Virus record (IMG/VR): IMGVR_UViG_2667527770_000007
DNA from: a virus
Lineage: Duplodnaviria; Heunggongvirae; Uroviricota; Caudoviricetes
Strand: one strand, 5' to 3'
DNA length: 30,007 nucleotides
The notes beneath the pieces were generated by a model. That model was not told where the DNA came from. It did not search any database and was given only the letters and a program-made list of their open reading frames with translations. The translations under genes and the position numbers were made by a program. This document shows, piece by piece, positions 937 to 21,060 of the stretch; within the stretch, counting starts at the first letter, position 1; the number at the start of each line of letters is the position of its first letter.

Positions 937-2326
937 TAAGTTAATGGCATTGAAAATTGATGAAATAGGCCGTGAGAAGTCACTGGCATTTATGGTATTA
1001 TTTAGTTTCGTGGTAATGATGCTAGGTAGCTCAAGAAGCATATATGGCGTTTACATGCCTGATGACTTTTTATTGGCCTCTCAAAAGATGCCTATGTCAT
1101 TCTATCTCAATCAAGGCCGCTTTATCCAAGCTGCCATTACAGGCTTTTTTAACTATATTGACATCAATATTGTATCTTCAAGCCCTATATTCACCCCGCT
1201 ATTTTTTATTTCAACATCACTTGCATCATCTTTATTAGTAATTACCTTATTAGAAAAAAGATCTTCTTTAATTATTTCATGTTTACTTTCGGGTGCAATT
1301 GTTAGCCACCCAGCTTTCAGCATGATGTCTGTATATCACCTTGCTGTTGTTTGCTTTGCTCTTTGCATGATTTGCATTGTTGGTTACATGATTTCATTTG
1401 ATGATTTCATAAAAACACACAATACCAGATCTGCTCTAACTGCTTCTTTTTTCGTGCTTCTAGTTTGCGGAAATTATCAATCCGCCTTTATAGTAATAAT
1501 AATTTACTCAGTTATTCGGATATATATTGTAGAGCATAAATTGTTAACTTTGAACAATATTAAAGCGGCCTACCCTATCATTGTTGGTTTAGTTGCTTAT
1601 GCTATCTTCTTTAAACTAACAAAAAATATGCTTGGTGAAAACCACTGGGATTCAAGAGCTGGTTTAGTCGAAGATCCATCGCTGCGCATACGGGAAATAT
1701 TTGCTTTCCTCCCTAGCTTTTTTTATAAAAATTGGTGGGTTATTCCAAAGCAATTTGGCATAGTTTTATCAGTTGCTTCAGCCTTTTACATTACAACTTA
1801 TTTATATAAATCAAATAAACTAACTGCATCATTAGCATTAATCCCTTTTCTTTTACTAACAGCTATTGTAATGCCTCTGGCTTTACTGAAGGTATGGGAC
1901 CCAACCCCCCGAGCACTATTTTCTATTTCGTTTCTTTATCCTTCTGTCATGATTCTCTTTTACAATGAGTCGATGATTAGACTTAAGGCAATATTGCTTT
2001 CAATAGCTGTACTGTTTGGACTTATCTCTTCTAATGGCTATCTTTATCAGACGGAAATGGCACAAAAGAAAGATGCCTTACTAGCGATAAAATCGTACAA
2101 CTTGGTAAAGAATAGCAGAGTTAAGGCGAACAGAATCGCTATTGTGAATAATAATGCAATAAACGTCGACTCCTGGGCCTTAAATGGGCTTATCTACTTC
2201 TTGACAAATGAGAATATGAATATCTCATCGCCAACTGAAGATGAGATTGAGCAGTGTGATAAATTTAAAAACGAAAATCGCTTGATTGAAGGTAAAGAAT
2301 CACTTTTAGTTTGCTTGTCTAATTGA
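929..2326 (+). CDS. Serotype-specific O-antigen glucosyltransferase (GtrC-type), polytopic membrane protein
   Basis: 465-aa strongly hydrophobic ORF immediately after and overlapping gtrB (ATG at 929 preceded by AAGGGGA; the ORF track's 923 start is GTG). Markedly AT-rich compared with the rest of the window. Position and composition are classic for the type-specific third gene of gtrABC; family assignment is positional, specificity unknown. Confidence 0.7.
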
Positions 2327-2348
2327 CTGGAAGAATTATTCGTTTAGA

Positions 2349-2367
2349 AGGCTCCTCAATGGAGCCT
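2349..2367 (+). terminator. Hairpin downstream of gtrC (AGGCTCC-TCAAT-GGAGCCT), possible weak terminator
   Basis: 7-bp perfect inverted repeat seen in sequence 23 nt after the gtrC stop; no clear U-tract, so function is uncertain. Confidence 0.3.
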
Positions 2368-2435
2368 AATATTAAGGTTTCTCAGGCCAACTAATGTTAG
2401 GTGCTACAGATGTATCTATCTCCTGAACCTTTTTG

Positions 2436-3632
<1,197 letters not shown>

Positions 3633-3839
3633 CTAAGCCAAAGAGATTGAACTCACCTCACCGGGGGTATAGACTTGCCTTGATTCACAACAAATTGATT
3701 TCTTGAAAGAGATTTCTCTACCTCCCGGTTCCCGACCGTGAGGGATTTTTTTTGCCAAACGTGCTGATATGCCCCTTACCCATTTACTTTATATGGCTAT
3801 ACCATTAGCATGCGCGCCGCTTTGTTATAAACTAGGTGA

Positions 3840-3885
3840 TGGTGCCGATAATAGGAGTCGAACCTACGACCTTCGCATTACGAAT
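3840..3885 (-). other. Partial tRNA-Thr(CGU) gene, 3' 46 nt only (anticodon loop to CCA); phage attachment-site relic
   Basis: Minus-strand sequence ...ATTCGTAATGCGAAGGTCGTAGGTTCGACTCCTATTATCGGCACCA matches the 3' portion of thrW-type tRNA-Thr as I recall it; the 5' half (acceptor/D arm) is absent and the sequence diverges upstream of the anticodon stem. Confidence 0.7.
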
Positions 3886-4119
3886 CTGTAGCACCAATCA
3901 TAACTATCTGTTTTAGCAAGCATTAACCGCATTCACTAAGTTATAGTTGATGGCACAAACAGAAAGTTGATGCATGATGTTGTCATGCGTATGTCACAAA
4001 TACGGCACAACAATCTTCAAATATGTAGACACACATCCACAGGAGAGCACAAAGCCTTGCAATACAGTGCAAAGCCTTGTGTGTCTCAGTTTTGTCCTGT
4101 GTGCCAGATATTGAATGGC

Positions 4120-4722
4120 CTACGCCTCCGGCAGTTCAGGCCAGATGACATCCGGCGCGGTGCTGGTATCTGTTGCCGTCACCGCGTCAATGTAATCCAG
4201 CACAGCGTTAAGGCGGGTTGTTTCTGCTTGCGTCAGCTGCCGCCCGGCCCGTAATTTCAGCTGAATCAGACTAATGGAAGCCATTGCAGCATCAATCAGT
4301 GACTGGCGTTGGATTTCTGCCGCGTCCACTGCGGCGCTATATTGTGCCTCAGTATCCGTCACCCATTTCTCACCATCCCATTTATCATATGGCGTTAACG
4401 GGGCGATAGTGGTTGTATTTTCAGGGTAATCACCCAGAGCTGTGATTTCTTTCGATTCTCCTGTTTCGGTGCTATAGATGATTTCACCGCGATGGTCTGG
4501 CACATATTCCCATGAGTTAAAATCTGCAGAACGGCAGATTGCATAACCAGCTTTGTTTGAGCCAGGAGCATCTAAACAGGAATGCGCCGGAATACCGACA
4601 CCCACAGCAAGATACTCAGTTGATGTGGAAATATATCCCCGCGTTTCTCCGTTGTAGTTATAAACGTTAATAAAGCCGGGTTCCGTGGCAATAAATTCAC
4701 TGTTTAATTTTGCCTGTGTCAT
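4120..4722 (-). CDS. Tail fibre assembly protein (Tfa chaperone)
   Basis: 200-aa ORF with the conserved Tfa-type C-terminal region (...KWDGEKWVTD...AETTRLNAVLDYIDA...), overlapping the tail-fibre stop by 1 nt (TAATG). Confidence 0.8.
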   Translation of the reverse strand: MTQAKLNSEFIATEPGFINVYNYNGETRGYISTSTEYLAVGVGIPAHSCLDAPGSNKAGYAICRSADFNSWEYVPDHRGEIIYSTETGESKEITALGDYPENTTTIAPLTPYDKWDGEKWVTDTEAQYSAAVDAAEIQRQSLIDAAMASISLIQLKLRAGRQLTQAETTRLNAVLDYIDAVTATDTSTAPDVIWPELPEA

Positions 4723-5423
4723 TATGCAGCCCTCACGATGTAGTTAAATGCAATGTTGCGGGGGCGCGTTTCATTTCCGCCTGTGTCGCTGGTATCTCTG
4801 CCTGCTTCACCGTGAAAATCGTATACAGCACCAGTTCCGTTATCTGCAGCCCAGGCTTTAAAAAACTTAAATTCGTGGTGGTGCGCTTTAAATAAATCGG
4901 ACTGCGCCGAGAGAAGCGCGCGCCCTTCATCCACCCCACGTCCGTCATCCCAGCCACGGATAAATTCTCCGCGTAAATCAGGCAATCTATTTGTTGGATA
5001 AGCCTTTGCCAGTTCCGGGTATTCTTCAGCAGAAAATGCCGCACCGTTGCATTTCAGCCAGCCTGTTGGCGGTGTGGCTGAAGGCCATGGAACAGGCACA
5101 CCAACAGGTAATGCAGAGCCTTCTCCCAAATCAAGATTTTCGAGAGCCGTTTTCACCGTGCCATCCGATTTGATATCGCCAAACGGATTCTTGCGGCTTA
5201 ACAGCAGCGCACGAAGTGCGGTAAGCAGCTGGTCATGCCGCCCTTTCTCCAGGCTGGCACCGGAGGCCTCCACCACGCTACAAAGTTCTTCCTGCAACAT
5301 GTCAAAGTAGTCATCATCCAGATCGGTGGCAGGTGTGCCGGTCTGGGGGTTACCACGGGTAAAACCGTTCTTACCCGCGCCGAACTTATCCTTCTGCGCG
5401 GTTTTCGTGTCTATACGATGCAT
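4722..5423 (-). CDS. Short tail fibre protein with C-terminal tail-collar-like domain
   Basis: 233 aa; N-terminus [21 protein letters not shown]... typical of baseplate-attached tail fibres; directly upstream of tfa. Confidence 0.7.
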
Positions 5424-5426
5424 GGA

Positions 5427-6011
5427 TTACTCCGGATATTTAAAAATTACGTAGGTATGCGAAGGGCAGAGTTTGTTAAGCACGCACTCGACGACGGTGT
5501 CGCCCCAGATACGCAGCGCGGTATCACAGGGATCGCCACATGTCATCCAGGTGGTGTTGGTGGCGGCTGGCATGTTGACCTGCCAGTAATACCGCCATTC
5601 CGGCGCATTCACCGCGTCAGTACAGGCCGATGAGCAGGTAAACGTGCTTTTATCGTATCGCGTGATAGTGGCGTCTGGTCTGCCCAGGGCAGCAAGCTGT
5701 GCAAGGTAAAAATCCTCATTGATGCCGCCCGCCAGATTAACCTTCGCATCCAGCCGTTGCTGACGCTGGCGAAGGGTCTGTGTCCCTGCGGGAATACATT
5801 CATCCGGCAGACCGCACAGACGCTCCCAGCGGTTTATCAGTTCAGTGGTGGTGCGCGGATCCAGCTCCCGCATCAGGGCATCCGCACGCTGATGAACGCG
5901 GGTTAATGACGGTGCCGCACCGGCAATCGCCGGATCTCTGGCTGACCACGCCGGACCGGGTGGCAACAGTGCCGACAACAGACGGATGTAATCATCGTTT
6001 GTCACGTCCAT
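5427..6011 (-). CDS. Mu gp48-like tail protein (DUF2313-type)
   Basis: 194 aa; position between baseplate-J-like gene and tail fibre; family call by pattern recognition only. Confidence 0.55.
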
Positions 6012-7060
6012 GAAATCGTCCCCAGAACCGCCAGTTCATTTTTCGCAATGGAGATATTGTCTGCCGGTGCAAGCAACTGATGGCTATATTCCCCGTTCGC
6101 ACCGGAAATCGCCTCACTGATACGCGATACCTTCAGTTCTCCCTGCGGATAACCATCACGCAGAAGAAACGAACGCAACTCCGCGGTGATGGCGGCTCGT
6201 ATTTCTGGTGTGTCCGGCGTCACGCGGATATGAAAATCCACCGTATGTGCCACCGGCCTGAATACATACAAATCAGAGCCTGCCACCGGGGCCAGTGGCA
6301 CGATATGTTGTCTTGCTGCCGTTTCCGTTGATTCTTCCGGAATGGGATTAATCAGGTCACTGCTGGCAATCATCACACCGACAGTTCCCGTTCCCATCCA
6401 GTGACGGTATGTCCATGCGCGGGTAATGCCGGGCACTTCTTTAGCCCAGACGACATAGTCCCCGTCAGCCCCGCCCTGAGGCGTCCAGTAATACCGCTCA
6501 ATGACGCGGGCGCGCCACGTTTCCAGCTCTTCAGTATCAAATCCGCCTGTAAGGGTGTCAGCCACACCGGAAGACGGCAGACCATTCACCGGCGTGACCA
6601 GGATTAATGCCGTACCGTCGTCAGCGTTACCGACCGCGCCTGAACTTGAGCAGGCGATCGGCACGCGCAGGACACCACCGGAGCTGGTTGCATCGGCAGT
6701 TGCCGTGTACTGAACCAGGTCATCGCGCTGAATAACACTCCCGGCGGTCACCTTCAGGCCATCGCTGACACCTTCCCAGCGCATATACCCGCTGGCAGCC
6801 GTGGCCCCCTTGCGCGGACACCGTTTCATCGCAGCATGTCGCGCCAGCCAGGACTCATCGCACAGGTCAGGCAGCATGTTCATTGCCAGATAATCGATGT
6901 AACCGTAAACCGTATGCAGCGCCGCCGCATACACCTTTGCCCGCACGTCTTCATCCATGCGCCGGAGCGTGTCGCTGACGTCCAGCCTGGCGAATAAATC
7001 GTTACGGAGCATACTGATATTTTCTGCCAGCGTCGGGCGCTGAAATTCACTGTCCGCCAT
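6002..7060 (-). CDS. Baseplate J-like protein (Mu gp47-like)
   Basis: 352 aa; synteny inside a Mu-type baseplate cluster (gp44-gp48 order). Confidence 0.65.
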
Positions 7061-7475
7061 GCGTTATCGCACTCCACAGATCATCAAAAGAAATCATTAC
7101 CGGTCCGTCACGACGCCAGAGAGTGATACTGTTACCCAGTTCATTAATCCCGGTGCGGCGGATATCCAGATCAATACGGGACACCACGCCATCATCAATC
7201 ATCCATTGCAGGCATTCGCGGATATACCCCCTTACCGTCTGCACCAGCTGATTGGTCAGTTTGCTGCGCTGAAGCAGCCACAGTCGGGAGCCGTAACGGT
7301 CATTCTGTACCGCAGGCCAGGTATCCCCCCACCATCCCATCGGGACGTCGGCGTTGTCATCAGGCTCCGCCCGCCGCCAGGTGAACAGGGAAATCACCAC
7401 GGCGCGGGTCAGCGGATCCAGCGGTGCGCTGGCGCAGGTGCGTTTACCGTTCACCGTCAGCCACAGTTCCATCAT
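7047..7475 (-). CDS. Mu gp46-like baseplate protein
   Basis: 142 aa; conserved position between V-like and J-like genes. Confidence 0.6.
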   Translation of the reverse strand: MMELWLTVNGKRTCASAPLDPLTRAVVISLFTWRRAEPDDNADVPMGWWGDTWPAVQNDRYGSRLWLLQRSKLTNQLVQTVRGYIRECLQWMIDDGVVSRIDLDIRRTGINELGNSITLWRRDGPVMISFDDLWSAITHGGQ

Positions 7476-8020
7476 GCCTCCATCGCTTTATCAGGTTTGT
7501 CGGTGTTACTTCCCTGACCGTTCTCTCTGTGACGATGCCCGTTATAGGCAAGCCGCATCGCTGACATGGTGGTGCCGCCGGAGTCGCACAGGTCTTTCAC
7601 CTGTCCTGTCACTTCCAGGTCCATTTCAAAACGTGCCTTAGGCGCATTGCGAAACGTGATCGTTTTACCTGCACCGTCCACCACGATCCCCTCCCGGGTC
7701 AGCGTCACGGACTGCCCCTGATCGTCATAGACAGCCACCTCCCCCGTTTGCAGCCCTTTCAGGCGGTAGCGACGGTCCGACACCGTAACAACCACCGCAT
7801 GAGAACGGTCGCCATCCGGAAACAACACCACCGCTTCCGCACCGCTGTTTGCCCTTGCGGTAAAACCGTAGGGTTCAAGATGTTCAACCCCGGCTTTGGG
7901 TTCACCGGCAATCAGGGACACATCCACGGTCTGACATTTCGTGGCGGCACTGATGCTTTTCACCACGGCCCGCCCAATCAGGCCGAGGAGTTGTCGCTGC
8001 ATGGCTTCAATCGTCCTCAT
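7472..8020 (-). CDS. Baseplate assembly protein V / spike (Mu gp45-like)
   Basis: 182 aa; synteny and size. Confidence 0.6.
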   Translation of the reverse strand: MRTIEAMQRQLLGLIGRAVVKSISAATKCQTVDVSLIAGEPKAGVEHLEPYGFTARANSGAEAVVLFPDGDRSHAVVVTVSDRRYRLKGLQTGEVAVYDDQGQSVTLTREGIVVDGAGKTITFRNAPKARFEMDLEVTGQVKDLCDSGGTTMSAMRLAYNGHRHRENGQGSNTDKPDKAMEA

Positions 8021-9099
8021 CAGAACGGGTCCTCCTGTACTCTGGCTTTTTTCTTTTTCCGCGCGCCGGGGGCTTCGGGTTCAGGCAGATAAGCATCAGG
8101 TGGGCCGACACGGATTTCCGTCAGGGTGCCGTTCTGGTCCTGAGTAAACGTGACTTCCGAAACAAGCAGTTCGGTATTGTCGAAACCACAGACCGGATCA
8201 AAGACAATCACCCGCTGGTTGGGCTGCCACAGCGTACCGTTACCCTGTCGCCAGCCCTGCACCACATAGGTGGTTTCATCCGTCCGCGCCGCCCGTTGTC
8301 GGGCTTCAAAGTCCGCACGGGCAATACAGCCTGCCCCCGTAGCCTGCCCTGTCTGCCTGATATACATCGGACGGTAACGGGCAATAAATGCGTCCTCTGT
8401 GCGGGCCCGCAGCGCGGTGGTGGTGGCCTCACCGAAATCATCGTCGTTTCCGGCACGCTGCCCCGCCACCTGGTAAACAGAAAACCGCTCCCGGATACTC
8501 TTCTCCGTATCGCAGGAAAGGATGTTTTCCCCGAGTACCAGCGCAGTATGTGCCCGCGTTGAGCCAATACCGCCAATCACCAGCCTGCCGTGCGGGTCGT
8601 CGTAAGCCAGTGCCTGCTGCTGACCGAGTATTTTGTTGATTACCTCAATCACCGTTTCACCGTGATCAGGCTGGACATCAGGAATAACACCCGACGGCGC
8701 ACCGTTGTTCACCACCTCAATGCCGAAAGGCGCAGCAAGCGCCTGCGCAATCTGTACCAGCGATCGTCCGTTAAACTGTGTCGATTCGGCTGCACAGTCA
8801 ATCAGGTCAGCGGTCAGACTGCGTCCGGCAATACCGGTGCTGACCGAACGGGCATCGTAACGAACGGGCGTCGCCTCCACCCAGCCGGTGATCACCAGCT
8901 CATCACCAATCAGCACCTCCACTTTTGAACCGTTTTTAATGCGCGGCTGAAGCGTGGTAATACCCTCATCTCCCGGCCACTGGCGGGTGATCTCCACACT
9001 GAAATCCCGCGCCAGCCGTTCAATACCGGCACCGATGCGCACCGATGTCCAGCCATTCCACTCCCGGCCATTTACCCGTAGCGTGACATTGTCGTTCAT
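8020..9099 (-). CDS. Baseplate hub protein (Mu P/gp44-like, phage late control D family)
   Basis: 359 aa; synteny immediately downstream of the N-like gene. Confidence 0.6.
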   Translation of the reverse strand: MNDNVTLRVNGREWNGWTSVRIGAGIERLARDFSVEITRQWPGDEGITTLQPRIKNGSKVEVLIGDELVITGWVEATPVRYDARSVSTGIAGRSLTADLIDCAAESTQFNGRSLVQIAQALAAPFGIEVVNNGAPSGVIPDVQPDHGETVIEVINKILGQQQALAYDDPHGRLVIGGIGSTRAHTALVLGENILSCDTEKSIRERFSVYQVAGQRAGNDDDFGEATTTALRARTEDAFIARYRPMYIRQTGQATGAGCIARADFEARQRAARTDETTYVVQGWRQGNGTLWQPNQRVIVFDPVCGFDNTELLVSEVTFTQDQNGTLTEIRVGPPDAYLPEPEAPGARKKKKARVQEDPF

Positions 9100-10466
9100 T
9101 GCACTGGCACCTTCAGAGGGATCACCGGCACAAAGCCGGGATGCGTAATGGCATTACGCCGGATAATGTCCGCGTCACGCGCCGCGTTATCAAACCAGGT
9201 CGCCGCCAGCACCAGCGCGGGTAAAACCTCATCCGGTGTGCGCTGAATGATCCGTGCAGACTGTTCAAGGCGCGTGTTGATATCCGCATTCAGATCTGCT
9301 TTCACCCGGCGCAGCGCCAGAAACAGCGCATCACTGGTTGTACGGGACAACTCCTTATCAATTGCCGTATTCAGTGTGTCGCGAATGTCAGTCAGTTCTT
9401 CCCACGTCGGCAGGTCAACTGTGTTTTTCACCGCCGGTGCATTGTTCAGTGCCGGAGGCGTGACGGAAGGCCAGCCAGTGCTCTGCGCAGGTGTTGTTGC
9501 CTGCCCCACTGCGGCATTCTGCATCACCGCGGAAGTTGTTGGCGCAGGCAATCGGGTGACGGCATACGCCGCTTCGCTGATTGCGGTCGTACGAAGGGTG
9601 CTGGCAACCACGTTACGCTGCTGCGTAGCCGTGGCGGTGGTTTTACTGTCCGTTTTCCAGACGCCGCGCGGTTGCAGATCGCTGCCGAGGCTGACACCGG
9701 AAAGCGTTTTGATCATGGTGACCAGGTCGCTGGCGTTACCATAAAGGCGTTTCCCGGTACGCCACATTTTCTGCACCTGCTCAACGAAATTTTTGCCTGA
9801 CGATGGCGGCGGCAGAAGTACCGAGATATCCCCCTGCAACAGCCTGGCGGCATCCGATACGGCAGAATCCACCACTTTCATCGCATCAGAAACATACCCA
9901 AGCATTGTGCTGGCATTACCGACGACATCGTTCTGCACAAAATCTGCCACGCCATCGATACTGAAACTACTGAAACTGTCACTGATGCAGTCATCCAGTG
10001 CAGAACAGGATGACATCAGCGTCTGCGCCGTCGCCGCACCTGATGTGGGGTAAGAGAGTTCTCCCGCTTCGACAAACTTCAGGTCAAAGCGGACAATACG
10101 CCCTTCACTCTTCGATGTGCTGACCCGAACTTCCCCGTCAACACAGACTTTCAGCTCACCGTAAGTCGGATGGACAAGCGTGCCGGGACCGGGTTTATTC
10201 AGCGCGTCAATCAGGCGATCGCGCTGGTCAAAGCAGTCATCTCCCACCACATAAGCTGTGATGGACGGGCGGAAAGTGACTTTTCCCAGATCTTCGGTAT
10301 AGGGTTTGTCGCGGTTCGGGTATTCGTGCGTTTCCACACGACGACCGGTTCCCGCACTTTCTTCTTCAACCTTAAACGGCACACCGCGAAATGACGCGTC
10401 CTGAAGTCTGTCTTTCCACGTCATATAAACTCCGTACATAAAAAATCCCACCGGAGTGGGACTCAT
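9096..10466 (-). CDS. DNA circularisation protein N-like (Mu gp43-like) tail protein
   Basis: 456 aa; N-terminal region (...WKDRLQDASFRGVPFKVEEE...) resembles the Mu N family as I recall it. Confidence 0.6.
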   Translation of the reverse strand: MSPTPVGFFMYGVYMTWKDRLQDASFRGVPFKVEEESAGTGRRVETHEYPNRDKPYTEDLGKVTFRPSITAYVVGDDCFDQRDRLIDALNKPGPGTLVHPTYGELKVCVDGEVRVSTSKSEGRIVRFDLKFVEAGELSYPTSGAATAQTLMSSCSALDDCISDSFSSFSIDGVADFVQNDVVGNASTMLGYVSDAMKVVDSAVSDAARLLQGDISVLLPPPSSGKNFVEQVQKMWRTGKRLYGNASDLVTMIKTLSGVSLGSDLQPRGVWKTDSKTTATATQQRNVVASTLRTTAISEAAYAVTRLPAPTTSAVMQNAAVGQATTPAQSTGWPSVTPPALNNAPAVKNTVDLPTWEELTDIRDTLNTAIDKELSRTTSDALFLALRRVKADLNADINTRLEQSARIIQRTPDEVLPALVLAATWFDNAARDADIIRRNAITHPGFVPVIPLKVPVQ

Positions 10467-10682
10467 TAACAGATTAATTTTTCATTACCTGCCAAAGCGC
10501 GTATAGCCAACATCATGGCTGACATCAAAACCGCTGGATCGCGTTTCCATAACCCGCATACCCGGAGGCGAATTCACAAAAGAGACCTTGATCTCACCAT
10601 CAACTTTTGGCGCAGAAGCTTTGTTAATCATGAAGGGATTCGGGCCTGTGGCACCGGAACCAGCGTATTCGACGGAATGGTG

Positions 10683-10853
10683 TTAAAGCTTATCGTCATC
10701 GGTATTCACCTTTTTATTCACGCGCCGGATATCACCCGCTGCTTCACGGCGCAGCCAGTAGTTGTTCTCGTCAACATTTCGCCCTTCGGCGGGCAAAAGG
10801 TCGCCGCGGGCAGGGTCAGGCACTGACCGCCCTTTAACAGGTTTGACAAACAT
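10683..10853 (-). CDS. Small Mu gp38-like protein (DUF2635-like)
   Basis: 56-aa ORF (MFVKPVKGRSVPDPARGDLLPAEGRNVDENNYW...) found by manual translation; below the ORF-track length cut-off. Family call is tentative. Confidence 0.4.
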   Translation of the reverse strand: MFVKPVKGRSVPDPARGDLLPAEGRNVDENNYWLRREAAGDIRRVNKKVNTDDDKL

Positions 10854-10861
10854 GAGGATCC

Positions 10862-11422
10862 TCAGGAAGGAAGGGTTATTTCGGTGTGATGTTCGATATC
10901 GCCGTCAGGCCCGTTACCGGGCTCGAGATAATCAACATCAATCGCCAGCGTTTGCAGTTCATCCAGACTGTTCAGATCATCCTGCTGGCGGGTATCGTCT
11001 TCAGTCAGCTCGCTGATGACCGAAAAATCGAACTGATAAATCAGCTCATGACGATTCAGATCCAGCAGCGTGCCGCCGTCATAGGTAATCGGGTTACCGC
11101 ACGCTTCCGGGTTCCAGCCCAGCAGGGCCTTAAAGAGCATCTGCCGGACATCGTCCACCACATCATACGAGGCAAACTGACCGCGCTCATCACGCCCGTT
11201 ACTCAGTATGACAACCACGGAGAAGCCCTCTTTCAGCTCCTGCCAGTAGTCGGTCTGGCTTTTGTTTTCTCCCGGAGAGTCATCACCCGGTACCACATAC
11301 GCCGCCGGGAGTCTCAGCTTTCCGACCTCCGGCAGATTTTTGAACTGTGCCGCGCCTGCCACCCGGTTTTCAAAATACGGGCAGCGGGCACGCAGCGCAG
11401 CAATAACAGGCGTCAGTTTCAT
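10862..11422 (-). CDS. Mu gp37-like protein (DUF1834-like), tail-associated
   Basis: 186-aa acidic protein; position upstream of the gp38-like ORF. Confidence 0.45.
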   Translation of the reverse strand: MKLTPVIAALRARCPYFENRVAGAAQFKNLPEVGKLRLPAAYVVPGDDSPGENKSQTDYWQELKEGFSVVVILSNGRDERGQFASYDVVDDVRQMLFKALLGWNPEACGNPITYDGGTLLDLNRHELIYQFDFSVISELTEDDTRQQDDLNSLDELQTLAIDVDYLEPGNGPDGDIEHHTEITLPS

Positions 11423-11925
11423 CTGTGTCGTCGCTCCGGCTTCAGTGATTTACGCAATTCCCGCGCCAGAAAATAGCGTGTCCAGCTGCGGTTCTTTTCA
11501 AGCGCTTCCACCATGAAGTTATTACGTGGAGCCAGTCGCCAGCCGCTGCCACCGGATGCACCACGATGATGACTACGACGACGTTTTGCTCCTCCCCGGA
11601 CACCAAAAAACAGAAACGCCGGATAGAAGTCACCAGAGATCATCCGGTTCCCCTTCCCGTTGCGCTGGTTAGGGGCAATGCGTGTCATAAAACCGGCTCG
11701 CTTTTTACTGGCTCTCGGCACCATATAACCAATCGAACGAGCCAGGCGTCCGGTCTGATAACCGGGGTTTTCACCCGGTGCCGACCGCGCACGGCGCATC
11801 ACCAGCCGACGGGCATCACGCATATGACGCTGCCCAATCGTGACAAACGCCCGCCGGACACGGGCGCGGTTAAAGCGCATCTCGGCGGGCTGCTGAACAT
11901 CAACGTGAAAAAAGGGAGTCGCCAT
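11419..11925 (-). CDS. Virion morphogenesis / tail-completion protein (HK97 gp10-like)
   Basis: 168-aa basic protein; position after head-tail joining genes. Confidence 0.45.
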   Translation of the reverse strand: MATPFFHVDVQQPAEMRFNRARVRRAFVTIGQRHMRDARRLVMRRARSAPGENPGYQTGRLARSIGYMVPRASKKRAGFMTRIAPNQRNGKGNRMISGDFYPAFLFFGVRGGAKRRRSHHRGASGGSGWRLAPRNNFMVEALEKNRSWTRYFLARELRKSLKPERRHR

Positions 11926-12310
11926 TGCTGCCTCCGTGACTCTGCCTACATTCGCCCAGCTCCGTACACTCCAGCAGCAGAAAGCGCCGCGCCCCGTTCA
12001 GATCGCGCTGACGTTTCACCCGGTACACACTGTCACCGCAGACCACCTCATAATCAGCGGTGATCCCCCGGCGGTAACGAATGGTGATGTAATGGGTGAT
12101 GGCGTCCCCGGTCTGCGCGGTTTCCTGCCAGGTGGTGGCACTGGTCTGGATAACCTTCGCCCATGTCCGGAACGTAACCGGGTATTGAGGCTCCACGCCA
12201 AAGTTATCCGCGGGCATATCCACCCGCAGGCGGATCAGGACGCGTTTATTCAGTTCACCGGGGTCCGGCAGAATGTAGGTTGCGCTGGTCTGCGCCTGAC
12301 GAATTTTCAT
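11900..12310 (-). CDS. Head-tail joining (head closure) protein
   Basis: 136 aa; position directly after the gp6-like connector gene. Confidence 0.5.
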   Translation of the reverse strand: MKIRQAQTSATYILPDPGELNKRVLIRLRVDMPADNFGVEPQYPVTFRTWAKVIQTSATTWQETAQTGDAITHYITIRYRRGITADYEVVCGDSVYRVKRQRDLNGARRFLLLECTELGECRQSHGGSNGDSLFSR

Positions 12311-12630
12311 TGCGGAAAGTACCTGTACGGGCCGACAAGCCAGCCAAAACTCTGCGGCATGTCGAGTTTCTCCACTTCCGTAACCGACGAGCGGTTTTCG
12401 TAAAAATGGCTGATAAGCATCAGCATCCCCAGACGAATATCATCCGGCAGGTGCAGCCCGTCCGGATCGCTCTCCGGAATGGTTTCATCCGGTGCATAGA
12501 GCTTCCGGTTCAGATACGTTTCCGTCCGCTTTTGCGCCGCACAGGCCAGCAGTTGCAGATGGCGGTCATCAGCATCGAAATCCTCATCCAGCCGGAGTTG
12601 GGCTTTAATCTCTTCCATTGTCAGAAGCAT
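12307..12630 (-). CDS. gp6-like head-tail connector protein
   Basis: 107 aa (MLLTMEEIKAQLRLDEDFDADD...); typical N-terminus and position after the capsid gene. Confidence 0.6.
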   Translation of the reverse strand: MLLTMEEIKAQLRLDEDFDADDRHLQLLACAAQKRTETYLNRKLYAPDETIPESDPDGLHLPDDIRLGMLMLISHFYENRSSVTEVEKLDMPQSFGWLVGPYRYFPQ

Positions 12631-12632
12631 AC

Positions 12633-12833
12633 TCAGCCCTCTTTACTGGTCGTGGCTTTTTTCTCTTTTGCCGCTTTACTGCTTTTTGCACTGGTTCCGC
12701 GCTCTGCTAACCCGGCCTGAAGTGCAATCTCCTGCACCCGGGCAGGAAGCGCCCCGTCGTCATACTCACCGGCCCGAATGACCTCAACACGCATACCGTC
12801 CGGTGACCATTTCAGATCTTGTTTCAGGATCAT
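12633..12833 (-). CDS. Small hypothetical protein between major capsid and connector genes
   Basis: 66-aa ORF with Lys-rich tail, tightly packed between flanking genes. No recognised family. Confidence 0.4.
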   Translation of the reverse strand: MILKQDLKWSPDGMRVEVIRAGEYDDGALPARVQEIALQAGLAERGTSAKSSKAAKEKKATTSKEG

Positions 12834-12855
12834 GATTCTTCACCCGTCAGAACAG

Positions 12856-12877
12856 GGGGCGCGGTTCCGCGCCCCTG
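12856..12877 (-). other. GC-rich hairpin immediately downstream of the major capsid gene
   Basis: Inverted repeat GGGGCGCGG-TTC-CGCGCCCC seen in sequence; no U-tract, so more likely an mRNA-stabilising or partial terminator structure. Confidence 0.35.
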
Positions 12878-12882
12878 AGTGA

Positions 12883-14088
12883 TTACGCCGCTGCAATCTT
12901 CAGCAGTTTGATGGCCTGCGAATCGACCAGCATCCCGCCGGTGCGCTTGGTGGTATAAAAACCGACAAACGGTTTATTGGTGTACGGGTCACGCAGAATG
13001 CGGGTGCCGATACGGTCAACGATGGTGTAACCCCGTTTGAAGTTACCAAATGCAATGGCTTTCGCATCAGCGGCGATATCCGGCATCTGTTCGTTTTCAG
13101 CGATACCGTAACCCGCCAGAGAGGACGGCTGCCCCAGTTCCAGCCCCGGACGCCACAGATAGTTACCCTCGGTGTCTTTCAGCAGACGGATGGCAAACAG
13201 GCTGTTGTTGTTCATCATGAACTTCGCGCCAGTGCGGTGTGCCTTACGCAGCGTGTAAATCAGTTTGATAATGGCGTCTGCGGTCACCGCGGTCGCTTCG
13301 CCGGATACAATATGCTGAAGTTTGCCGAACGCCCGGACCTTGTCGGTTTCATCAGTGGATTCATACGCCAGGAACCCTTTCGGCTTCTTGGTGCCATCGC
13401 CTGAGGTAAAGGCAATTTCTTCCTGTTCGGCAAATTCGGTTGCCAGCTCGCTGTTGATCCAGGCCTCCACGTTGAAGAAGGCATCGTCCAGCATTTTCTG
13501 GGTAGCCTGCGGGTTGCCGTAGATTTCCCCCATGAGAGGTTCAATCAGCTCCAGTCTGGAGGTGGCAGTCTGGGATCGCGTATCCGTTTCCCCCACCCAC
13601 CCGGAAGCCGTACCGCCCAGATTCACCAGTTTTTTGTAGTCGGAACCGCCAACGGTGATCACCGTGGCTTCCTGACGCATCACCACTTCATCTTTCAGCA
13701 GGTTAAGAATGTTGCGATCCAGTTCTTCCGGCACGGCGTAGCCACCGTCTTCATCGGTACCCACCTGCAATGCCTTACGCTCCAGATCGCGCAGACCGTC
13801 TTCACGGCCTTTACGTAGAAAGCCCACAAACGCCTCTTTATGCTCGGTGGCCAGTTTATTTTGCGCTCCACCTGCCGGACGTTTCAGCTCAAGCAGCTCT
13901 TTTTCAAGGTCGCTTTTGAGATTTTCCAGCTCGCTGAGTTTCCCGTTCAGGGTTTCCACCTGCCCGGCAAGCTTGCCTTTTTCCTGCTCAATCGCATCCA
14001 CGCGCTTGTCGTTCTTTGCTTTGAAGTCGTCAAACTTCTGCTGCAGCTCCTGCGCGACCTGTTCGACATCTTTAATATCAACCGCCAT
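12883..14088 (-). CDS. Major capsid protein, HK97 family
   Basis: 401 aa with coiled-coil N-terminal delta-domain-like region (MAVDIKDVEQVAQELQQKFDDFKAKND...) then capsid body; downstream of the prohead protease. Confidence 0.85.
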   Translation of the reverse strand: MAVDIKDVEQVAQELQQKFDDFKAKNDKRVDAIEQEKGKLAGQVETLNGKLSELENLKSDLEKELLELKRPAGGAQNKLATEHKEAFVGFLRKGREDGLRDLERKALQVGTDEDGGYAVPEELDRNILNLLKDEVVMRQEATVITVGGSDYKKLVNLGGTASGWVGETDTRSQTATSRLELIEPLMGEIYGNPQATQKMLDDAFFNVEAWINSELATEFAEQEEIAFTSGDGTKKPKGFLAYESTDETDKVRAFGKLQHIVSGEATAVTADAIIKLIYTLRKAHRTGAKFMMNNNSLFAIRLLKDTEGNYLWRPGLELGQPSSLAGYGIAENEQMPDIAADAKAIAFGNFKRGYTIVDRIGTRILRDPYTNKPFVGFYTTKRTGGMLVDSQAIKLLKIAAA

Positions 14089-14102
14089 CGTATTTCTCCT
14101 GA

Positions 14103-14789
14103 TTAGAAGTTCAGATTTTTCAGTGCATTCAGTGCAGAGCCCACATCCTCAGCGTCGCGCAGGGACAGTGCGCCATAGCCCCCGGCCATGAATGCTTTGG
14201 CCTGGGTACGGGAGAGTCCGACATCACGCAGGACTCTTTCGATTTTTTTCTGTTCGGGGATTTCCCCGCGGGCCAGCGCGTTCTTGACGTCGCTGATCCG
14301 CGCCTCGTCGTTAGACGGAAACGTCACCAGACTGACTTCCCAGAGGTCGATTTCTTTCAACAGAAAGGCTTCTTTGCTCCGGTCGTATTCCCAGTCTTTC
14401 AGGACGTACCCAATAGAAAGGCCGGTTAACGAACCGGCCTTCATGTGTGCATGTGCGCGTTTTGCGAGGGGATCATCATCAATAAGCAACCGTCCCCTGA
14501 CGTAAAGCCCGACATCGTCTTCCTTCATTTCGGTGTAAACACCGATGGGTTCATCCATGCGGTGCTGCCAGAGCAGCGCAGGTAACGCTTTTCTGTCACT
14601 CCACGCCCGCAGGGAAGCAGCAAATGCCCCGGACATCACCACATCATCGTGGCTGTCCTTTACACCAAAGACGGAGCCATACCCTTCAAACTCACCGGAG
14701 TCACTGACAGATTTCAGACTCAGCGGTACATCAAGACGTTGTTTCGTCTGCATTGGCGTTATCCTTCTGCTTACCGGCTTTACTGCCAT
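14103..14789 (-). CDS. Prohead protease, HK97 family
   Basis: 228-aa ORF between portal and capsid genes. The true start may be an internal Met, since the ORF as given overlaps the portal end by 59 nt. Confidence 0.75.
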   Translation of the reverse strand: MAVKPVSRRITPMQTKQRLDVPLSLKSVSDSGEFEGYGSVFGVKDSHDDVVMSGAFAASLRAWSDRKALPALLWQHRMDEPIGVYTEMKEDDVGLYVRGRLLIDDDPLAKRAHAHMKAGSLTGLSIGYVLKDWEYDRSKEAFLLKEIDLWEVSLVTFPSNDEARISDVKNALARGEIPEQKKIERVLRDVGLSRTQAKAFMAGGYGALSLRDAEDVGSALNALKNLNF

Positions 14790-15972
14790 CGGAGGGTTTC
14801 GTGGTCATGTTCATCGGTGTGAGATAGACATCCCCACCGGGACGCGGATTCATATCTTCCAGGTCGCGGCAGTCATTGGGAGAGTAAATTCCCCAGTTAA
14901 TCCCGGTGGCGTAGGCTTCAAAACGGGACTTCATATCCCCGCGCAGTAACGCCCCGGCGTTAAATTTGGCGTAATAAACGCCCTGCTTACTTTTTCGTAC
15001 CAGTCCGGTGTTGATCCGCTGCTCAATGCGGGTCAGATACGGCACCAGTGAATAGTTGATAAATCCCAGCCCCAGTTCTTCGATATTGTTGAAGGTGGCG
15101 CGATCGGTGTTCTGCACCATGTGCAATGGCACACGGAACAGACGACAGATTTCTTCAAGCTGAAACTTGCGGGTTTCCAGGAACTGGCTGTCCTCGGCGT
15201 TCAGCGCCATCGACTTCCAGTCCAGCCCCATCTCAAGGATCATCGGGCGGTGAGCATTACCAAGCCCGGTGTGACGCTCCTCAAAATCTTTCTTCAGACG
15301 CTCATAAGCCTGATCCGACAGCGTCTGCTCTGTACGCAACACACCGGACGTCACCGCACCATTGCTGAACAGTCTGGCCCCGTGCTCTTCGGTCGCAGCT
15401 GCCAGCGATATTGCCTCGCGGGCATAGGCGATGGGATTCAGTCCCACCAGACCGTCCAGCGTTAGCGTGCGCACATGCCAGATATCTTCCTGGCTCAGTA
15501 CATCCGTGGAGCCGTCCGGGAATGTGACCTGGTAAACCGGTTCCCAGCTACTGTTAAGCTTCGGTACCACACAACCTGGGTCGACGGGCAGCAGTTCAGC
15601 CACTTCGCCAAATGCTTTCACTTTGTAGGCGTAAAAGTTTCCCCGCAGGCACAGACAGGTGACCACCAGCTCCCAGAACTCCTGCGGCGTCATATAGCCA
15701 TTGGGATGCGTGGAGATCAGCTTATGCAGACGTTCGCCGGTGGCTCTCTGTTTCAGGCTGCCGTTCAGGTGATACAGGTTGCAGGGCAACATCCCGACCG
15801 ACTCCGCCAGCACCCTGACGCAGGAAAAAACCGCCGTCAGTCGCATGGCCCGCTGGCTGCTGATCTGCTTTCCGGTATAGGTGTCATATGACAGCCCGAT
15901 AGCATCCGCCAGCTCTGCTGGCGTGGTCACCGGTGCGTCACTTTTTCGTTGAAATAATCCCGAAAAGAACAC
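14731..15972 (-). CDS. Portal protein, HK97 family
   Basis: 413 aa; position after TerL. Confidence 0.8.
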   Translation of the reverse strand: MFFSGLFQRKSDAPVTTPAELADAIGLSYDTYTGKQISSQRAMRLTAVFSCVRVLAESVGMLPCNLYHLNGSLKQRATGERLHKLISTHPNGYMTPQEFWELVVTCLCLRGNFYAYKVKAFGEVAELLPVDPGCVVPKLNSSWEPVYQVTFPDGSTDVLSQEDIWHVRTLTLDGLVGLNPIAYAREAISLAAATEEHGARLFSNGAVTSGVLRTEQTLSDQAYERLKKDFEERHTGLGNAHRPMILEMGLDWKSMALNAEDSQFLETRKFQLEEICRLFRVPLHMVQNTDRATFNNIEELGLGFINYSLVPYLTRIEQRINTGLVRKSKQGVYYAKFNAGALLRGDMKSRFEAYATGINWGIYSPNDCRDLEDMNPRPGGDVYLTPMNMTTKPSDGSKAGKQKDNANADETTS

Positions 15973-16154
15973 TATTTACCTCCGCCGACAGACGGCTGTG
16001 TACGGTCGAGATATCGCGCCACCAGCCACGACCAGAACAGGCACAGCGCCCCGGCAACAACAAACCCCGCCGGGGGATAAATCAGCCAGGCACCATACGC
16101 CAGCAAAAGCGCACCCAGCACGCCCACCAGAGGCGCGAGAATCAGCATGATCAT
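15972..16154 (-). CDS. Small two-TM membrane protein (hypothetical) between terminase and portal genes
   Basis: 60-aa [52 protein letters not shown]... with two hydrophobic helices; 1-nt overlap with the portal start. Confidence 0.45.
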
Positions 16155-16165
16155 AATTACCTCAG

Positions 16166-17899
16166 TTAAAGCGAGCGGATCCCGTAGGACTCAATGTGAT
16201 CAGACAGCGTGTCTTCTTTCTCGTACAGCATGGCTCTGCCAACCGCCATAATCAGCGCAACTGCACCATCAATTTTGTTTTCCGCCTGCTCCTTGACGGG
16301 CTTCACCACATCATCGTTACCCGGAATGGTTTTGCCGACCACGTTGCCGATACACCAGGTCATGATGGGATTGCCGTCATGATGAAAACGCCCCGATTCA
16401 ATTGCCGCTTCCAGCTCTTTCATCGGGTCGGACATGTTGGTGTAGTTCTGAATGATGGTGATGGGGTTCAGGTCTTCATCCGCAAGGTCATGCGACAGCC
16501 CGGTCGCCCCGAAGGGGTCGATGGGTGACTCACTGACCGGGCTGATTTTGTTCGCCGCTTTGGCCTCCTCGAGGATGTAGCGATAATCCACCTCCGCACC
16601 ATCGGTAACGGTCAGAACGCCCATTTCCACCCATTTCTGAAAGCGCTCGGCTGTCCGGCGATCTTCATTTTTCTCGACGCTGTACACCGTGTCATACGGT
16701 ACCCAGAAGCGCGGAGCCACACTGTAGTAATGCGTTTTACCGTCAATCTCGCGGGTATAAAGTCGCGCCATACTGTTCATATCCAGCTTACGCGCCAGGT
16801 CAAAGGCCAGAATGCACGGCTGCCCCTCAAACTGCTCAAGGGTCAGTGATTTATTCTCGCAGCTCTGCCAGCTCACCAGGTTGAAATACGCCGAACGCGC
16901 CGACACCCAGATATTGAGGTGTTTTGTTTTAAAGACGTTTGCCAGACGGGCGTTATTTTTCGCACGTTGCTGCTGGCTTAACAAAAACTCGCGATAAACC
17001 GACACACCGATATTCGGGTTAGCTTTTTCAAGTACCTGCGGGTCGGTCCAGTCGTCGCCTTCGTCAACGGTATAGATGATCCCGAACAGTTCATCGTTGG
17101 GCACCGAGCCGTTGAGCATCTCGATGACTTCCCGCCGTTTGTCGTAGCACGGCCCCTCAATGTTGTACCCGGCGGTGGTAATGGCCCACATCAGTGGCTG
17201 GCGTCGCGCCCCCATCCCGGTAAGCATCGTGGTGTAAAGCGCATCTGTGGCGTGCTCGTGATATTCATCCACCACGGCACAGTGGGGTGATGAACCATCA
17301 CCAGGGTTACCGATCAGCGGTTCAAACCGCGCACCATCCTCCGGACGGTTCATGTTTGAGGCGTTAACCTCAATCCCGAACGCTTCCGTCAGCATGGGTG
17401 TGCGTTTACACATCAGTCGTGCCGGACGAAAGACTTCCCATGCCTGTTTCTCCGTCGTGGCACCGGAATACACTTCCGCGCCGAACTCGTTATCACAGGC
17501 AAAACAATACAGGGCAACACCGGCAGAGATTGCCGATTTGCCGTTCTTACGGGGAATTTCGGTATACACCTCCCGGAAGCGGCGCAACCGGGTGCCTTTA
17601 TTGACCCAGCCAAACGCACAGCAGATCACAAAGAGCTGCCACGGCTCCAGCGTGATGGGCATCCGTTTAAATGCCCACTCACCCTTGGTGTGCGGCAACA
17701 GCTGAATAAATTTCGCGGCCCGTTCAGCCAGGTCCTTGTCGAAGCGGTAACGAAACGACTTACTTTTTTCCTCCATCAGGTCATCAAGATGGCGCTGGCA
17801 GGCCTGAATCACAAACTGGCAGGCCACAATCTTTCCGCGCACGACATCACGGGCATACTGATTGGCAGCATTTACGTTGGGGTAAGATTTCCGGCTCAT
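16166..17899 (-). CDS. Terminase large subunit
   Basis: 577 aa with ATPase-like region and C-terminal nuclease-like region; follows TerS with a 4-nt overlap. Confidence 0.85.
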
Positions 17900-18399
17900 G
17901 ATTCGATGATTTTCAGAAACGGGTTAGTGGCTTTCTTCTGCCCCGCCAGGCCAATCAGACGCTGGCGGCTGCTGGGGTCGAGTCCGAGCATTGCCCCCGT
18001 ACTGCTCATCTCGGACTCCTGTTCTTTTTTGGCGGTCAGCTCCGGATTTTTGACCATACCGCCCATTGCACCGGTGATGGTGTTGCCCTGTCTGGCAATA
18101 TTTTTCACGGCACGTCGCCAGAACTCGTAGGCCACGCACCACCGCTCAAGCACCGCGAGGTCAGTCACGCACAGCAGACCCTGACCGCAGAGTTCTTTAG
18201 TTGTCAGTTGCCACATGATCGTAGCGAGAGGGAGATCTTCTTCAGCGAACCACTCCGGTGGCTCAACACCTTTGATGGGCGTAAAAACAGGTTCATCTTT
18301 ATTCAGGGCTCGCTTGCCGGGGTTTCCGGCCAGCGCCTTGCGCGCCGTTGGCTTGGGGCGACGCCCGGAACGCCCCGCCGTTCCAGCCATATGCGGCAC
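17896..18399 (-). CDS. Terminase small subunit (P27 family)
   Basis: 167 aa; N-terminus [18 protein letters not shown]...GNPGKRALN typical of P27-family TerS. Confidence 0.75.
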
Positions 18400-18515
18400 T
18401 CCTGGTTAAATTTCATTTTTCGCGGGTATAAAAAAACGATGGGGCGGGCAGTCCGGAAGACGTCAGGCTGCAGGGATTTGACCCGCCCCTCCCCTCATGC
18501 AGTTGAGAATTATTA

Positions 18516-18866
18516 TCACTTTAGCCGTTCACGGGCCGTCTTCGCCTTATGGCACGGCCAGCACAGGCTCTGCAGATTACTGTCTGCATCGGTGCCGCCA
18601 TGCGCTTTAGGGATGATGTGGTCAACGGTTTTAGCTTCACGCACCACACCGGCACGCAGACATAACTGACACAGGCCTTTGTCACGTTTCAGCACACGCG
18701 CACGGATAACGTCCCACTTCGAACCGTAGCCGCGCTGATGACGGGATTGTCCTGGCTTGTATTGCTTCCAGCCTTCGCTTTTGTGGCTTTCGCAGTAGCC
18801 TGACGGGTCTGTCGTGGTATTACGGCAGCCGCGAACGCGGCAGGCTTTTGGAGTTCGAGGGGGCAT
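18516..18866 (-). CDS. HNH endonuclease (terminase-associated)
   Basis: 116 aa with Cys pairs and a His/Asn motif (...VDHIIPKAHGGTDADSNLQSLCWPCH...); located just upstream of TerS as in HK97-like cos phages. Confidence 0.8.
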   Translation of the reverse strand: MPPRTPKACRVRGCRNTTTDPSGYCESHKSEGWKQYKPGQSRHQRGYGSKWDVIRARVLKRDKGLCQLCLRAGVVREAKTVDHIIPKAHGGTDADSNLQSLCWPCHKAKTARERLK

Positions 18867-18892
18867 AAATATATTCCTGTTCTTTGTTCGGA

Positions 18893-19165
18893 CTATTTGA
18901 CTGCTGCCAGCAAAGCGTTACGGCGCATCTCGATACTTCGAATCCCCGCTTTGTCAATATTGCATTGTCCCAACGCCGAAAGCAGGCTCACATTCAGATC
19001 CAGACTGGCCCCATAGGTCAGCGGCTCGGGAATGACTGGCTGGGGAGTTTCAGTAGTCAGGCTTGCTGGCAACGGTACCGCCGGAATCGGTACGTAAACT
19101 GTTCGCGTACTTCCGCAACCGGTCAGCAGCGGCAGCAGGCACAGGACGTGAAGCACAATCATCAT
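18893..19165 (-). CDS. Rz1-like outer-membrane spanin (o-spanin) lipoprotein
   Basis: Lipobox LLTGC after a signal peptide (MMIVLHVLCLLPLLTGCGS...), proline-rich; starts inside Rz in another frame and runs past its stop (overlapped architecture). Confidence 0.65.
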   Translation of the reverse strand: MMIVLHVLCLLPLLTGCGSTRTVYVPIPAVPLPASLTTETPQPVIPEPLTYGASLDLNVSLLSALGQCNIDKAGIRSIEMRRNALLAAVK

Positions 19166-19442
19166 CCGCAACAGCCACTTTGATATCTTCCTGGGTTCTC
19201 TGTGACTCCAGTGCGATCTGCTGTTTTGCATGTTGATTCGCCTCCTGAATGATGTTCGTTATTGCCATAGTACGCAGAACATTCGCGGTGATAGCCTCAG
19301 TAGAATCAGCTCGCTGTTCCGCAGCGTCAGCACGCTTCTGTTCCTTCAGAAACTTTCCGTGGTAGTGATTAGCTGACCAGACAAGACCACCAGCAATACA
19401 AGCAATAAACGTTAAAATGAGCGCCCAATAACTCATCTTCAT
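19050..19442 (-). CDS. Rz-like inner-membrane spanin (i-spanin)
   Basis: 130 aa with N-terminal TM helix then charged coiled-coil-like region; directly downstream of the endolysin. Confidence 0.7.
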   Translation of the reverse strand: MKMSYWALILTFIACIAGGLVWSANHYHGKFLKEQKRADAAEQRADSTEAITANVLRTMAITNIIQEANQHAKQQIALESQRTQEDIKVAVADDDCASRPVPAAAADRLRKYANSLRTDSGGTVASKPDY

Positions 19443-20053
19443 ACCAGCAGCGCCGCCCGCGCCTTGTTGTATCGAACCTTACGATCCTCAATACCGTTCA
19501 GACCGCCGTTAATGATGCGCGTAACACGATTAATATCAGCACCGTAGACCATGCAGCCTTTAGAGGTGTAGAACCATGCAGCTGAGCGCGCGGCCTGTAG
19601 CTCCTGCTCCAGTTGTTCAGGTGAGGTCACCAGATCTAACTTCAGCGCCGCGCCACAGATGCGATAATTATGAAGGCCAGTGATTTGAATTAATCCTCTA
19701 CCACGATATTTCCAGCCATCACCGGGTGCTTTGTTACCCAGTCGGTTGCTATACACCAGATTGGCAATAGCATCCTGACGAGCTGCATGTCCGGATGTTC
19801 TGCCAAGGGCATCAGCCTGCTGCTGTGTGATCCTCTTTCCGAACGTCGCCACCAGCGCAGATGGTGTGTAGTTAAAATTTTCAACTACGGCGCTAAACCC
19901 CATCGACTCATGGCCTACCTGAGCGATAAACATTGCCTGATCCGCTGGTGCTGTAATGCCGAATTCCTTCATCGCCGCATCAATGTGCGGAAACCAGCGC
20001 GCAGCCAGCCCGGCGCTAATACCAGCCGCCTTTTGAAATAATTGTTGGTTCAT
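19439..20053 (-). CDS. Endolysin, glycoside hydrolase family 19 (chitinase-like lysozyme)
   Basis: 204 aa (...IAQVGHESMGF...YRGRGLIQITG...) resembling GH19 endolysins; sits in the lysis cassette. Confidence 0.75.
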   Translation of the reverse strand: MNQQLFQKAAGISAGLAARWFPHIDAAMKEFGITAPADQAMFIAQVGHESMGFSAVVENFNYTPSALVATFGKRITQQQADALGRTSGHAARQDAIANLVYSNRLGNKAPGDGWKYRGRGLIQITGLHNYRICGAALKLDLVTSPEQLEQELQAARSAAWFYTSKGCMVYGADINRVTRIINGGLNGIEDRKVRYNKARAALLV

Positions 20054-20334
20054 TAGTGCCTCAGATGATCAACCAGACGTGCAACGTTGCCTCTGACGGC
20101 CACCAGCACGGAAAGAAAAATAGTGTTCGCCACGATAATGGGCCATGAGGAATGAGGATAAATCCCACAGAGATAGGCCAACGGAACAGCACTGTATGTA
20201 ACAGTAATCAGCCAGGCTAAACGTGAAACCCAAGGACGATGCCGCGAATCACCACGACGATAAAACATCAGAGTAATAACAACACAAGCACATAACAGCG
20301 CATTTATAGTTGCTGTCGGGTCATTTAGCTCCAC
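20053..20334 (-). CDS. Holin/antiholin-like membrane protein
   Basis: 93 aa with predicted TM helices, between holin and endolysin. Confidence 0.5.
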   Translation of the reverse strand: MELNDPTATINALLCACVVITLMFYRRGDSRHRPWVSRLAWLITVTYSAVPLAYLCGIYPHSSWPIIVANTIFLSVLVAVRGNVARLVDHLRH

Positions 20335-20707
20335 CTGAACCTCCCCGGCGCGTTATGAGCGCCACCAGCGAGCCGATATCCTGATTATTCAGGAACGTCA
20401 GGATTTTAACGGCTAAAGCAGAGACGATTACGGCACCAATAGCATCCAGAGGTTTATCACTGTATCCGGTCAAGTTCGCCAGCTTGGAGCCAACCAACCC
20501 AGAGCAAAGAATCCCGGCAATATATGACACGATAAAATATGCCAGTCGGCGCGATGCACTCAGATCTGCTGCTGTTGCTATGTAGAATACAGCCCCTGCA
20601 AATGCGCCAAATACAACGCCGTAATCAGTTCCGGTCAGCAGTCCATAAACACTGGCACCCGTCAGGGCACCACCAGCCAGCCCAGTACCGGAAATCGGAT
20701 CGGACAT
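20321..20707 (-). CDS. Putative holin
   Basis: 128 aa, glycine-rich with multiple TM helices, first gene of the lysis cassette. Confidence 0.55.
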   Translation of the reverse strand: MSDPISGTGLAGGALTGASVYGLLTGTDYGVVFGAFAGAVFYIATAADLSASRRLAYFIVSYIAGILCSGLVGSKLANLTGYSDKPLDAIGAVIVSALAVKILTFLNNQDIGSLVALITRRGGSGGAK

Positions 20708-20786
20708 TTAGCCCCCTCTTAATTGCTGTTGGTCCTCTCAGATATGAGGGGAAGGGATCTTAATGACAGTCTGTTTATTATTTCAG

Positions 20787-21043: not shown

Positions 21044-21060
21044 TTATTGACCTCCAGAAA

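Follow-up and report, generated by a model that had tools for sequence, protein, structure and literature searches.

The short interval between the Mu gp38-like gene and the baseplate gene N in the viral DNA analysed here (IMG/VR record IMGVR_UViG_2667527770_000007, a stretch of 30,007 nucleotides hereafter called the window) is very probably the scar of one 3,884-bp deletion in the late operon of an SfV-like temperate myophage prophage, which the deletion would have left tail-defective. Phages of the SfV-like type have an HK97-type head and a contractile tail of the Mu type, are regulated in lambdoid fashion, and carry a gtr cassette for O-antigen glucosylation. The window holds the head and packaging genes, the Mu-type baseplate and fibre genes, and the gtr cassette of this type, and the contractile-tail core is absent from it. 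The scar is a discrete structural difference, not a statistical signal.

The deletion junction and the missing tail genes

Three-way alignments of the window against phage SfV, E. coli RM10466, and E. coli GDSC2239PM resolve the scar into a single deletion with one seamless junction at positions 10655..10658 (no strand assigned). When positions 9000..12400 were searched against phage genomes with megablast, the query was never covered in one piece; records covered either its left 42%, with N and P, or its right 51%, with the gp38-like and connector genes. Blastn against the SfV locus (L002) split the window at 10652-10658 into blocks matching SfV 3462..5120 and 8998..10746. The left block ends at window position 10658, which corresponds to position 5120 of the SfV locus and 7309 of the RM10466 locus (L024), and the right block begins at window position 10652, which corresponds to SfV 8998 and RM10466 11187, so exactly 3,884 bases are missing in both comparisons. 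The blastn alignment to GDSC2239PM gives the same two-block split. In the SfV record, the missing segment is nt 7552-11435. At base level, both parental sites carry a 4-bp microhomology, CGGA, within a match of 6 out of 7 bases (CAnCGGA), and the junction contains 0 filler bases. An alignment against intact tail clusters, which the sequence-only reading had proposed as a check on its claim of a deleted tail module, thus maps to one clean junction.

The segment removed comprises codons 16-498 of the sheath gene, the tube gene, the tail assembly chaperone, and codons 1-554 of the 611-codon tape-measure gene (91%). In SfV, vB_EcoM-720R4, GDSC2239PM, and RM10466, all annotated and intact, these four genes lie exactly between the two flanks, which agrees with the Mu-type order expected in the sequence-only reading. 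The intact module encodes a sheath of 498 aa, a tube protein of 118 aa, a chaperone of 89 aa, and a tape-measure protein of 610-611 aa, and its Pfam families run from sheath PF04984/PF17481/PF17482 to PF10618, PF10109, and PF10145; some intact relatives have one extra accessory gene ahead of N. The full four-gene tail module is also found in 7 of the 9 other loci that encode an identical N protein. The distance between the gp38-like gene and N is 258 bp in the window (10425..10682), as opposed to 4,142 bp in SfV and about 4.1 kb in E. coli RM10466. The true scar is 258 bp because N most likely starts at 10424 and the 56-aa ORF beside it is an intact gene. The sequence-only reading was therefore right that the gap is short and the loss of kilobase scale, but its figures of about 400 bp for the gap and 4-5 kb for the missing DNA were both somewhat too large.

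To search for the missing genes elsewhere, every protein of the intact relative GDSC2239PM was compared with the whole window by tblastn. Even at E<=10, the chaperone and tube retrieved no meaningful match in the window, and the sheath and tape measure retrieved nothing beyond two remnants inside the scar. This bears out the claim that the tail module is deleted between the gp38-like and N-like genes. Nor do tail homologues occur elsewhere in the window, and the flank to its left consists of gtrA and host genes.

The first remnant is a 5' stub of the sheath gene (10628..10699, minus strand), in which 15 native codons (MTISFNTIPSNTLVP) are followed in translation by 8 out-of-frame codons and a TGA. 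This 23-codon stub begins at the native ATG at 10699 and ends at the TGA at 10628..10630; its first 17 nt overlap the end of the gp38-like gene, an arrangement shared with SfV, and residues 1-16 of a relative's sheath match at 10652..10699. The second remnant consists of the last 57 codons and the stop of the tape-measure gene (10485..10658, minus strand), identified by blastn collinearity with SfV and RM10466; by tblastn, tape-measure residues 555-609 match at 10494..10658 with 96% identity. Sheath codon 15 is thereby joined to tape-measure codon 555 out of frame, the deletion length being 3n+2. The 48-aa ORF at 10485..10631 is the tape-measure remnant read from an internal ATG, as the sequence-only reading had seen in calling it a fragment. 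The 56-aa ORF that it had listed alongside is no leftover but an intact gp38 homologue.

The stop of the sheath stub overlaps the ATG of the 48-aa ORF in the sequence ATGA at 10628..10631. Because of this overlap, a C-terminal tape-measure peptide could arise by translational coupling, but the arrangement is probably a coincidence. The 48-aa ORF was rejected as a marker of the deletion, since the tail module is complete in the 24 contigs where it occurs, none of which has the junction. In at least 24 contigs of relatives (L004-L013, e.g., L006 8316..10147), the tape measure is split into a product of about 562 aa and the same 48-aa C-terminal ORF by small frameshifting indels located some 40-60 nt upstream of the breakpoint seen in the window (a 4-nt deletion in L006). 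These indels could be real variation or sequencing error. We also treated as spurious a 103-aa plus-strand ORF that spans the junction (10515..10826), because it is antisense to three gene pieces; it has no Pfam match.

Between the tape-measure remnant and N lies the native spacer (10425..10484, minus strand), with a terminator-like hairpin at 10443..10464. The sequence is collinear with SfV and RM10466 through 10658, and the hairpin is not a product of the deletion. This spacer is a hot spot for accessory genes in relatives (L003 18425..19108, L015 9318..10000, L019 9508..10000), some of which carry there a gene for a 164-176-aa hypothetical protein or a 125-aa bPH-domain protein; it is empty of accessory genes in SfV, RM10466, and the window. 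Scans of the window for tRNAs and Rfam families returned nothing at threshold, so no RNA gene is hidden in the scar.

Genes retained around the scar

ORF tiling, Pfam scans, and the families called on the identical source contig place all of the prophage's late genes on the minus strand, in the order, from high to low coordinates, of regulatory genes, lysis cassette with an HNH gene, head, connectors, terminator, gp38-like gene, and N to Tfa. The first gene downstream of the scar is N, encoding a Mu gp43-like DNA circularization (baseplate) protein (9096..10424, minus strand; 442 aa, intact; PF07157, E=3e-34) with 98.6% full-length identity to its GDSC2239PM counterpart. Its start is most likely at 10424. 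The exact 442-aa product is recorded in 20 contigs and relatives are called at the same length, unlike the alternative reading of 456 aa from 10466, which is not on record and was rejected. On the other side of the scar stands the gene for a DUF2635 protein (10683..10853, minus strand; 56 aa, intact; PF10948, E=1e-16), the homologue of Mu gp38 and SfV orf10. This protein is 100% identical to WP_000497751.1 of GDSC2239PM, and its homologue is annotated in SfV as 'similar to phage Mu GP38'. It is followed by a Mu gp37-like tail terminator (10862..11422, minus strand; 186 aa, intact; PF23840, E=2e-26), which also has a weak match to PF09646 Gp37 below the family cut-off (E=0.0014), is 99.5% identical to its GDSC2239PM relative, and is a terminator without a tail to cap. 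Both the N-like and the gp38-like genes recognized by the sequence-only reading are genuine, though its gp38 label sat one gene off.

The baseplate and fibre genes P/gp44, gp45, gp46, J/gp47, gp48, fibre, and tail fibre assembly occupy 4120..9099 on the minus strand, all full length. Together with N, these genes carry the families PF07157, PF21683/PF22255/PF21929, PF06890, PF07409, PF04865, PF10076, PF07484, and PF02413. The head and connector module (11419..18399, minus strand) is likewise full length and comprises TerS, TerL, portal, S78 protease, HK97-type capsid, and connectors, the last being a head-tail connector, a head closure protein, and a 168-aa neck protein. As had been claimed from the sequence alone, the baseplate, fibre, and head-proximal genes are thus all present: by tblastn, every head, connector, baseplate, and fibre protein is full length and 90-100% identical to its GDSC2239PM counterpart, with the head and packaging proteins at about 99%. 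The regulatory genes kept include an HTH+S24 repressor, Cro, a CII-like protein, and antiterminator Q. The lysis region (19250..21100) encodes Phage_holin_8, Phage_holin_3_7, a GH19-like endolysin, and a DUF2570 protein, whereas the corresponding region of GDSC2239PM codes for a holin of the lambda family, a GH24 endolysin, and a DNA methyltransferase. The window's lysis cassette is a mosaic replacement and no defect.

The window shares with the serotype-converting Shigella/E. coli myophages SfV, SfI, SfII, and SfIV and Escherichia phage vB_EcoM-720R4 the same late-gene order, the HK97-type head, the Mu-type baseplate, the DUF2635 gene, and a cassette of gtrA, gtrB, and a type-specific gtr gene, and its flank DNA is 95-99.9% identical to theirs. 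It differs from this group in lacking SfV nt 7552-11435, in having a different lysis cassette, and in the presence of an IS5-like element, along with a 3' fragment of tRNA-Thr, on the DNA that links its gtr cassette to the tail fibre assembly gene. SfI, a close relative about 96% identical to the right flank of the window, has a contractile tail by electron microscopy (PMC3636060).

Two other members of the same prophage family, each with an identical N or Gtr protein, also have internal deletions. One (L017, GCA_053262155.1) has a deletion running from inside the sheath gene to inside TerL, and at 5679..6718 a TerL fragment is joined to the sheath 3' end with about 7.9 kb missing relative to GDSC2239PM. 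In the other (L034, GCA_013680355.1; 14983..16253), gp45 directly adjoins the cro/cI region. The end points of both differ from those in the window, and both deletions are independent of the one described here.

The gtr cassette, chromosomal setting, and distribution of the junction

The left end of the window is taken up by the gtr cassette, with GtrB at 1..936 and a 465-aa type-specific glucosyltransferase of the Glucos_trans_II family at 929..2326, both on the plus strand, and with gtrA just outside the window on the source contig. Between this cassette and the tail genes sits an IS5-like (ISKpn26-family) element at 2437..3633 with 16-bp terminal inverted repeats and a plus-strand gene for a 326-aa transposase. 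The element is flanked by TTTG at one end and CTAA at the other, with no obvious duplication of a target site, which hints at an IS-mediated rearrangement. Farther in, at 3840..3885 on the minus strand, 46 nt reproduce exactly the 3' end of a tRNA-Thr gene, presumably thrW, and thousands of E. coli genomes have annotated tRNA-Thr genes with this sequence; neither ARAGORN nor Rfam found a complete tRNA in the window. The fragment, whose sequence looks like an att core, has the IS5-like element on one side and the tail fibre assembly gene on the other, whereas SfV's lies beside gtrA.

The cassette from gtrA and gtrB through the 465-aa Gtr and the IS5 element to the tail fibre assembly gene (window 1..4722) recurs with exactly the same Gtr protein in 258 indexed blocks. 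Among the loci compared (L026-L035), it is joined to SfV/Mu-like tail modules, to lambda J/Lom/long-fibre modules, to another myovirus baseplate, or to no tail module, and its chromosomal neighbours vary between dacD, yfdC with an integrase, and, on the source contig, the truncated LysR gene. The gtr cassette behaves as a mobile mosaic cassette. CPS-53/KpLE1 of E. coli K-12 is a defective prophage with a cassette of the gtrA-gtrB-gtrS type and a tail fibre assembly gene. Like it, the window is a chromosomal prophage remnant that keeps both, but it is far less decayed, with a single lesion in a complete late region where CPS-53 has lost nearly all structural genes. Some relatives (L026, L035) carry the same gtr cassette at the yfdC-integrase site, beside the integrase.

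Window positions 1..20424 are matched at 100% identity by the source contig (JRPZ01000005.1 of the draft assembly GCA_000785765.1; L014/L027), the junction included. Leftward of the window, the contig continues into gtrA and then into host genes, namely a truncated LysR gene, Fer2/FAD_binding_5/Ald_Xan_dh_C/XdhC dehydrogenase genes, which we take to be paoABCD-like, and EcpD. The phage-derived block is thus embedded in a bacterial chromosome, with host genes flanking gtrA. At its right side, the contig stops some 35 bp after the window, and the integrase end lies beyond that point, where only early genes would be expected from synteny with GDSC2239PM. About 20% of complete E. coli genomes carry the SfV-like phage type: the flanks match in 1,106 of the 5,426 searched, and the junction occurs in 0. 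The junction is also absent from GTDB species representatives (searched with 36-nt and 20-nt patterns), from JGI metagenomes, and from 33 other loci that we compared, so that among all 35 loci only those of the source contig have it.

Given that the source is a multi-contig draft, that a contig end follows the window after about 35 bp, and that the junction appears in no other genome or metagenome searched, one might suspect an assembly artefact, i.e., a collapse or chimera in the draft behind which the real prophage has an intact tail module. We consider this very unlikely. The 4 bp shared by the parental sites (6 of 7) are far below any assembler k-mer and therefore offer no substrate for a repeat collapse, the contig is uninterrupted for more than 10 kb on both sides of the junction, and the contig has been recorded in 2 samples. 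Moreover, the independent deletions in the two relatives described above show that such events are common.

Origin and consequences of the deletion

Taking the scar as a true deletion, the short microhomology points to RecA-independent illegitimate recombination, which would have proceeded by replication slippage or by microhomology-mediated end joining. The deletion looks recent because the other late genes are intact and near-identical to those of viable phages. A contractile tail starts with polymerisation of the tube on the baseplate around the tape measure, a step that the chaperone assists; the sheath next polymerises around that tube, and capping by the terminator completes the tail. 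With the tube, sheath, chaperone, and tape-measure genes lost, no tail should be able to form, and the prophage is almost certainly unable to build a contractile tail. At least one gene essential for virion formation has been lost (sheath, tube, chaperone, and tape measure), and the loss of the first three together with 554 of the 611 tape-measure codons supports the label of cryptic or defective prophage that the sequence-only reading had applied.

On induction, the prophage's replication, the filling of its heads, the production of baseplate and fibre proteins, and cell lysis would all still be possible, but the particles released would be non-infectious, DNA-filled heads without tails. It might be asked whether such heads could join the tails of a co-resident or superinfecting SfV-like phage, in which case the deletion would be real and the element nevertheless alive and spreading with a helper. 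The heads and tails of tailed phages assemble separately and then join spontaneously; here the genes for head, packaging, connectors, lysis, and regulation have all stayed intact, and SfV-like sequences are present in 1,106 of 5,426 complete E. coli genomes. Even so, we find this reading hard to credit: nothing points to a helper in the source genome, nothing in the baseplate and fibre genes still present suggests selection for life without a tail, and the confinement of the deletion to one contig argues against a spreading lineage. That the prophage is maintained as a helper-dependent element, with its DNA-filled capsids completed by the tails of SfV-like phages, is highly improbable, although if true it would represent an early step from prophage towards tail-stealing satellite. 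Rescue in trans would in any event leave the element tail-defective on its own.

Two further identities were dismissed on gene content: an R-type tailocin, since keeping the heads and losing sheath and tube is the opposite pattern, and a capsid-forming PICI or tail-stealing satellite, a cf-PICI being a small island that brings capsid and packaging genes of its own but none for tail, baseplate, or fibres, whereas this element exceeds 26 kb and still has the complete set of baseplate and fibre genes (about 6.3 kb) as well as a lysis cassette and a regulatory region of the lambdoid kind.

The preferred reading, a single deletion in an otherwise complete late region, makes the window a strain-specific case of well-known, ordinary prophage decay. 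The element would persist as a defective prophage from which the host still gets gtrABX serotype conversion and repressor-based immunity. Because the head, baseplate, lysis, and regulatory genes remain, prophage predictors based on gene counts may score the region as intact, whereas the correct label is defective. The scar cleanly illustrates, at base resolution, the first inactivating event in the domestication of a prophage, here one bearing O-antigen-modifying gtr genes: a single microhomology-mediated deletion that would have spared everything else.
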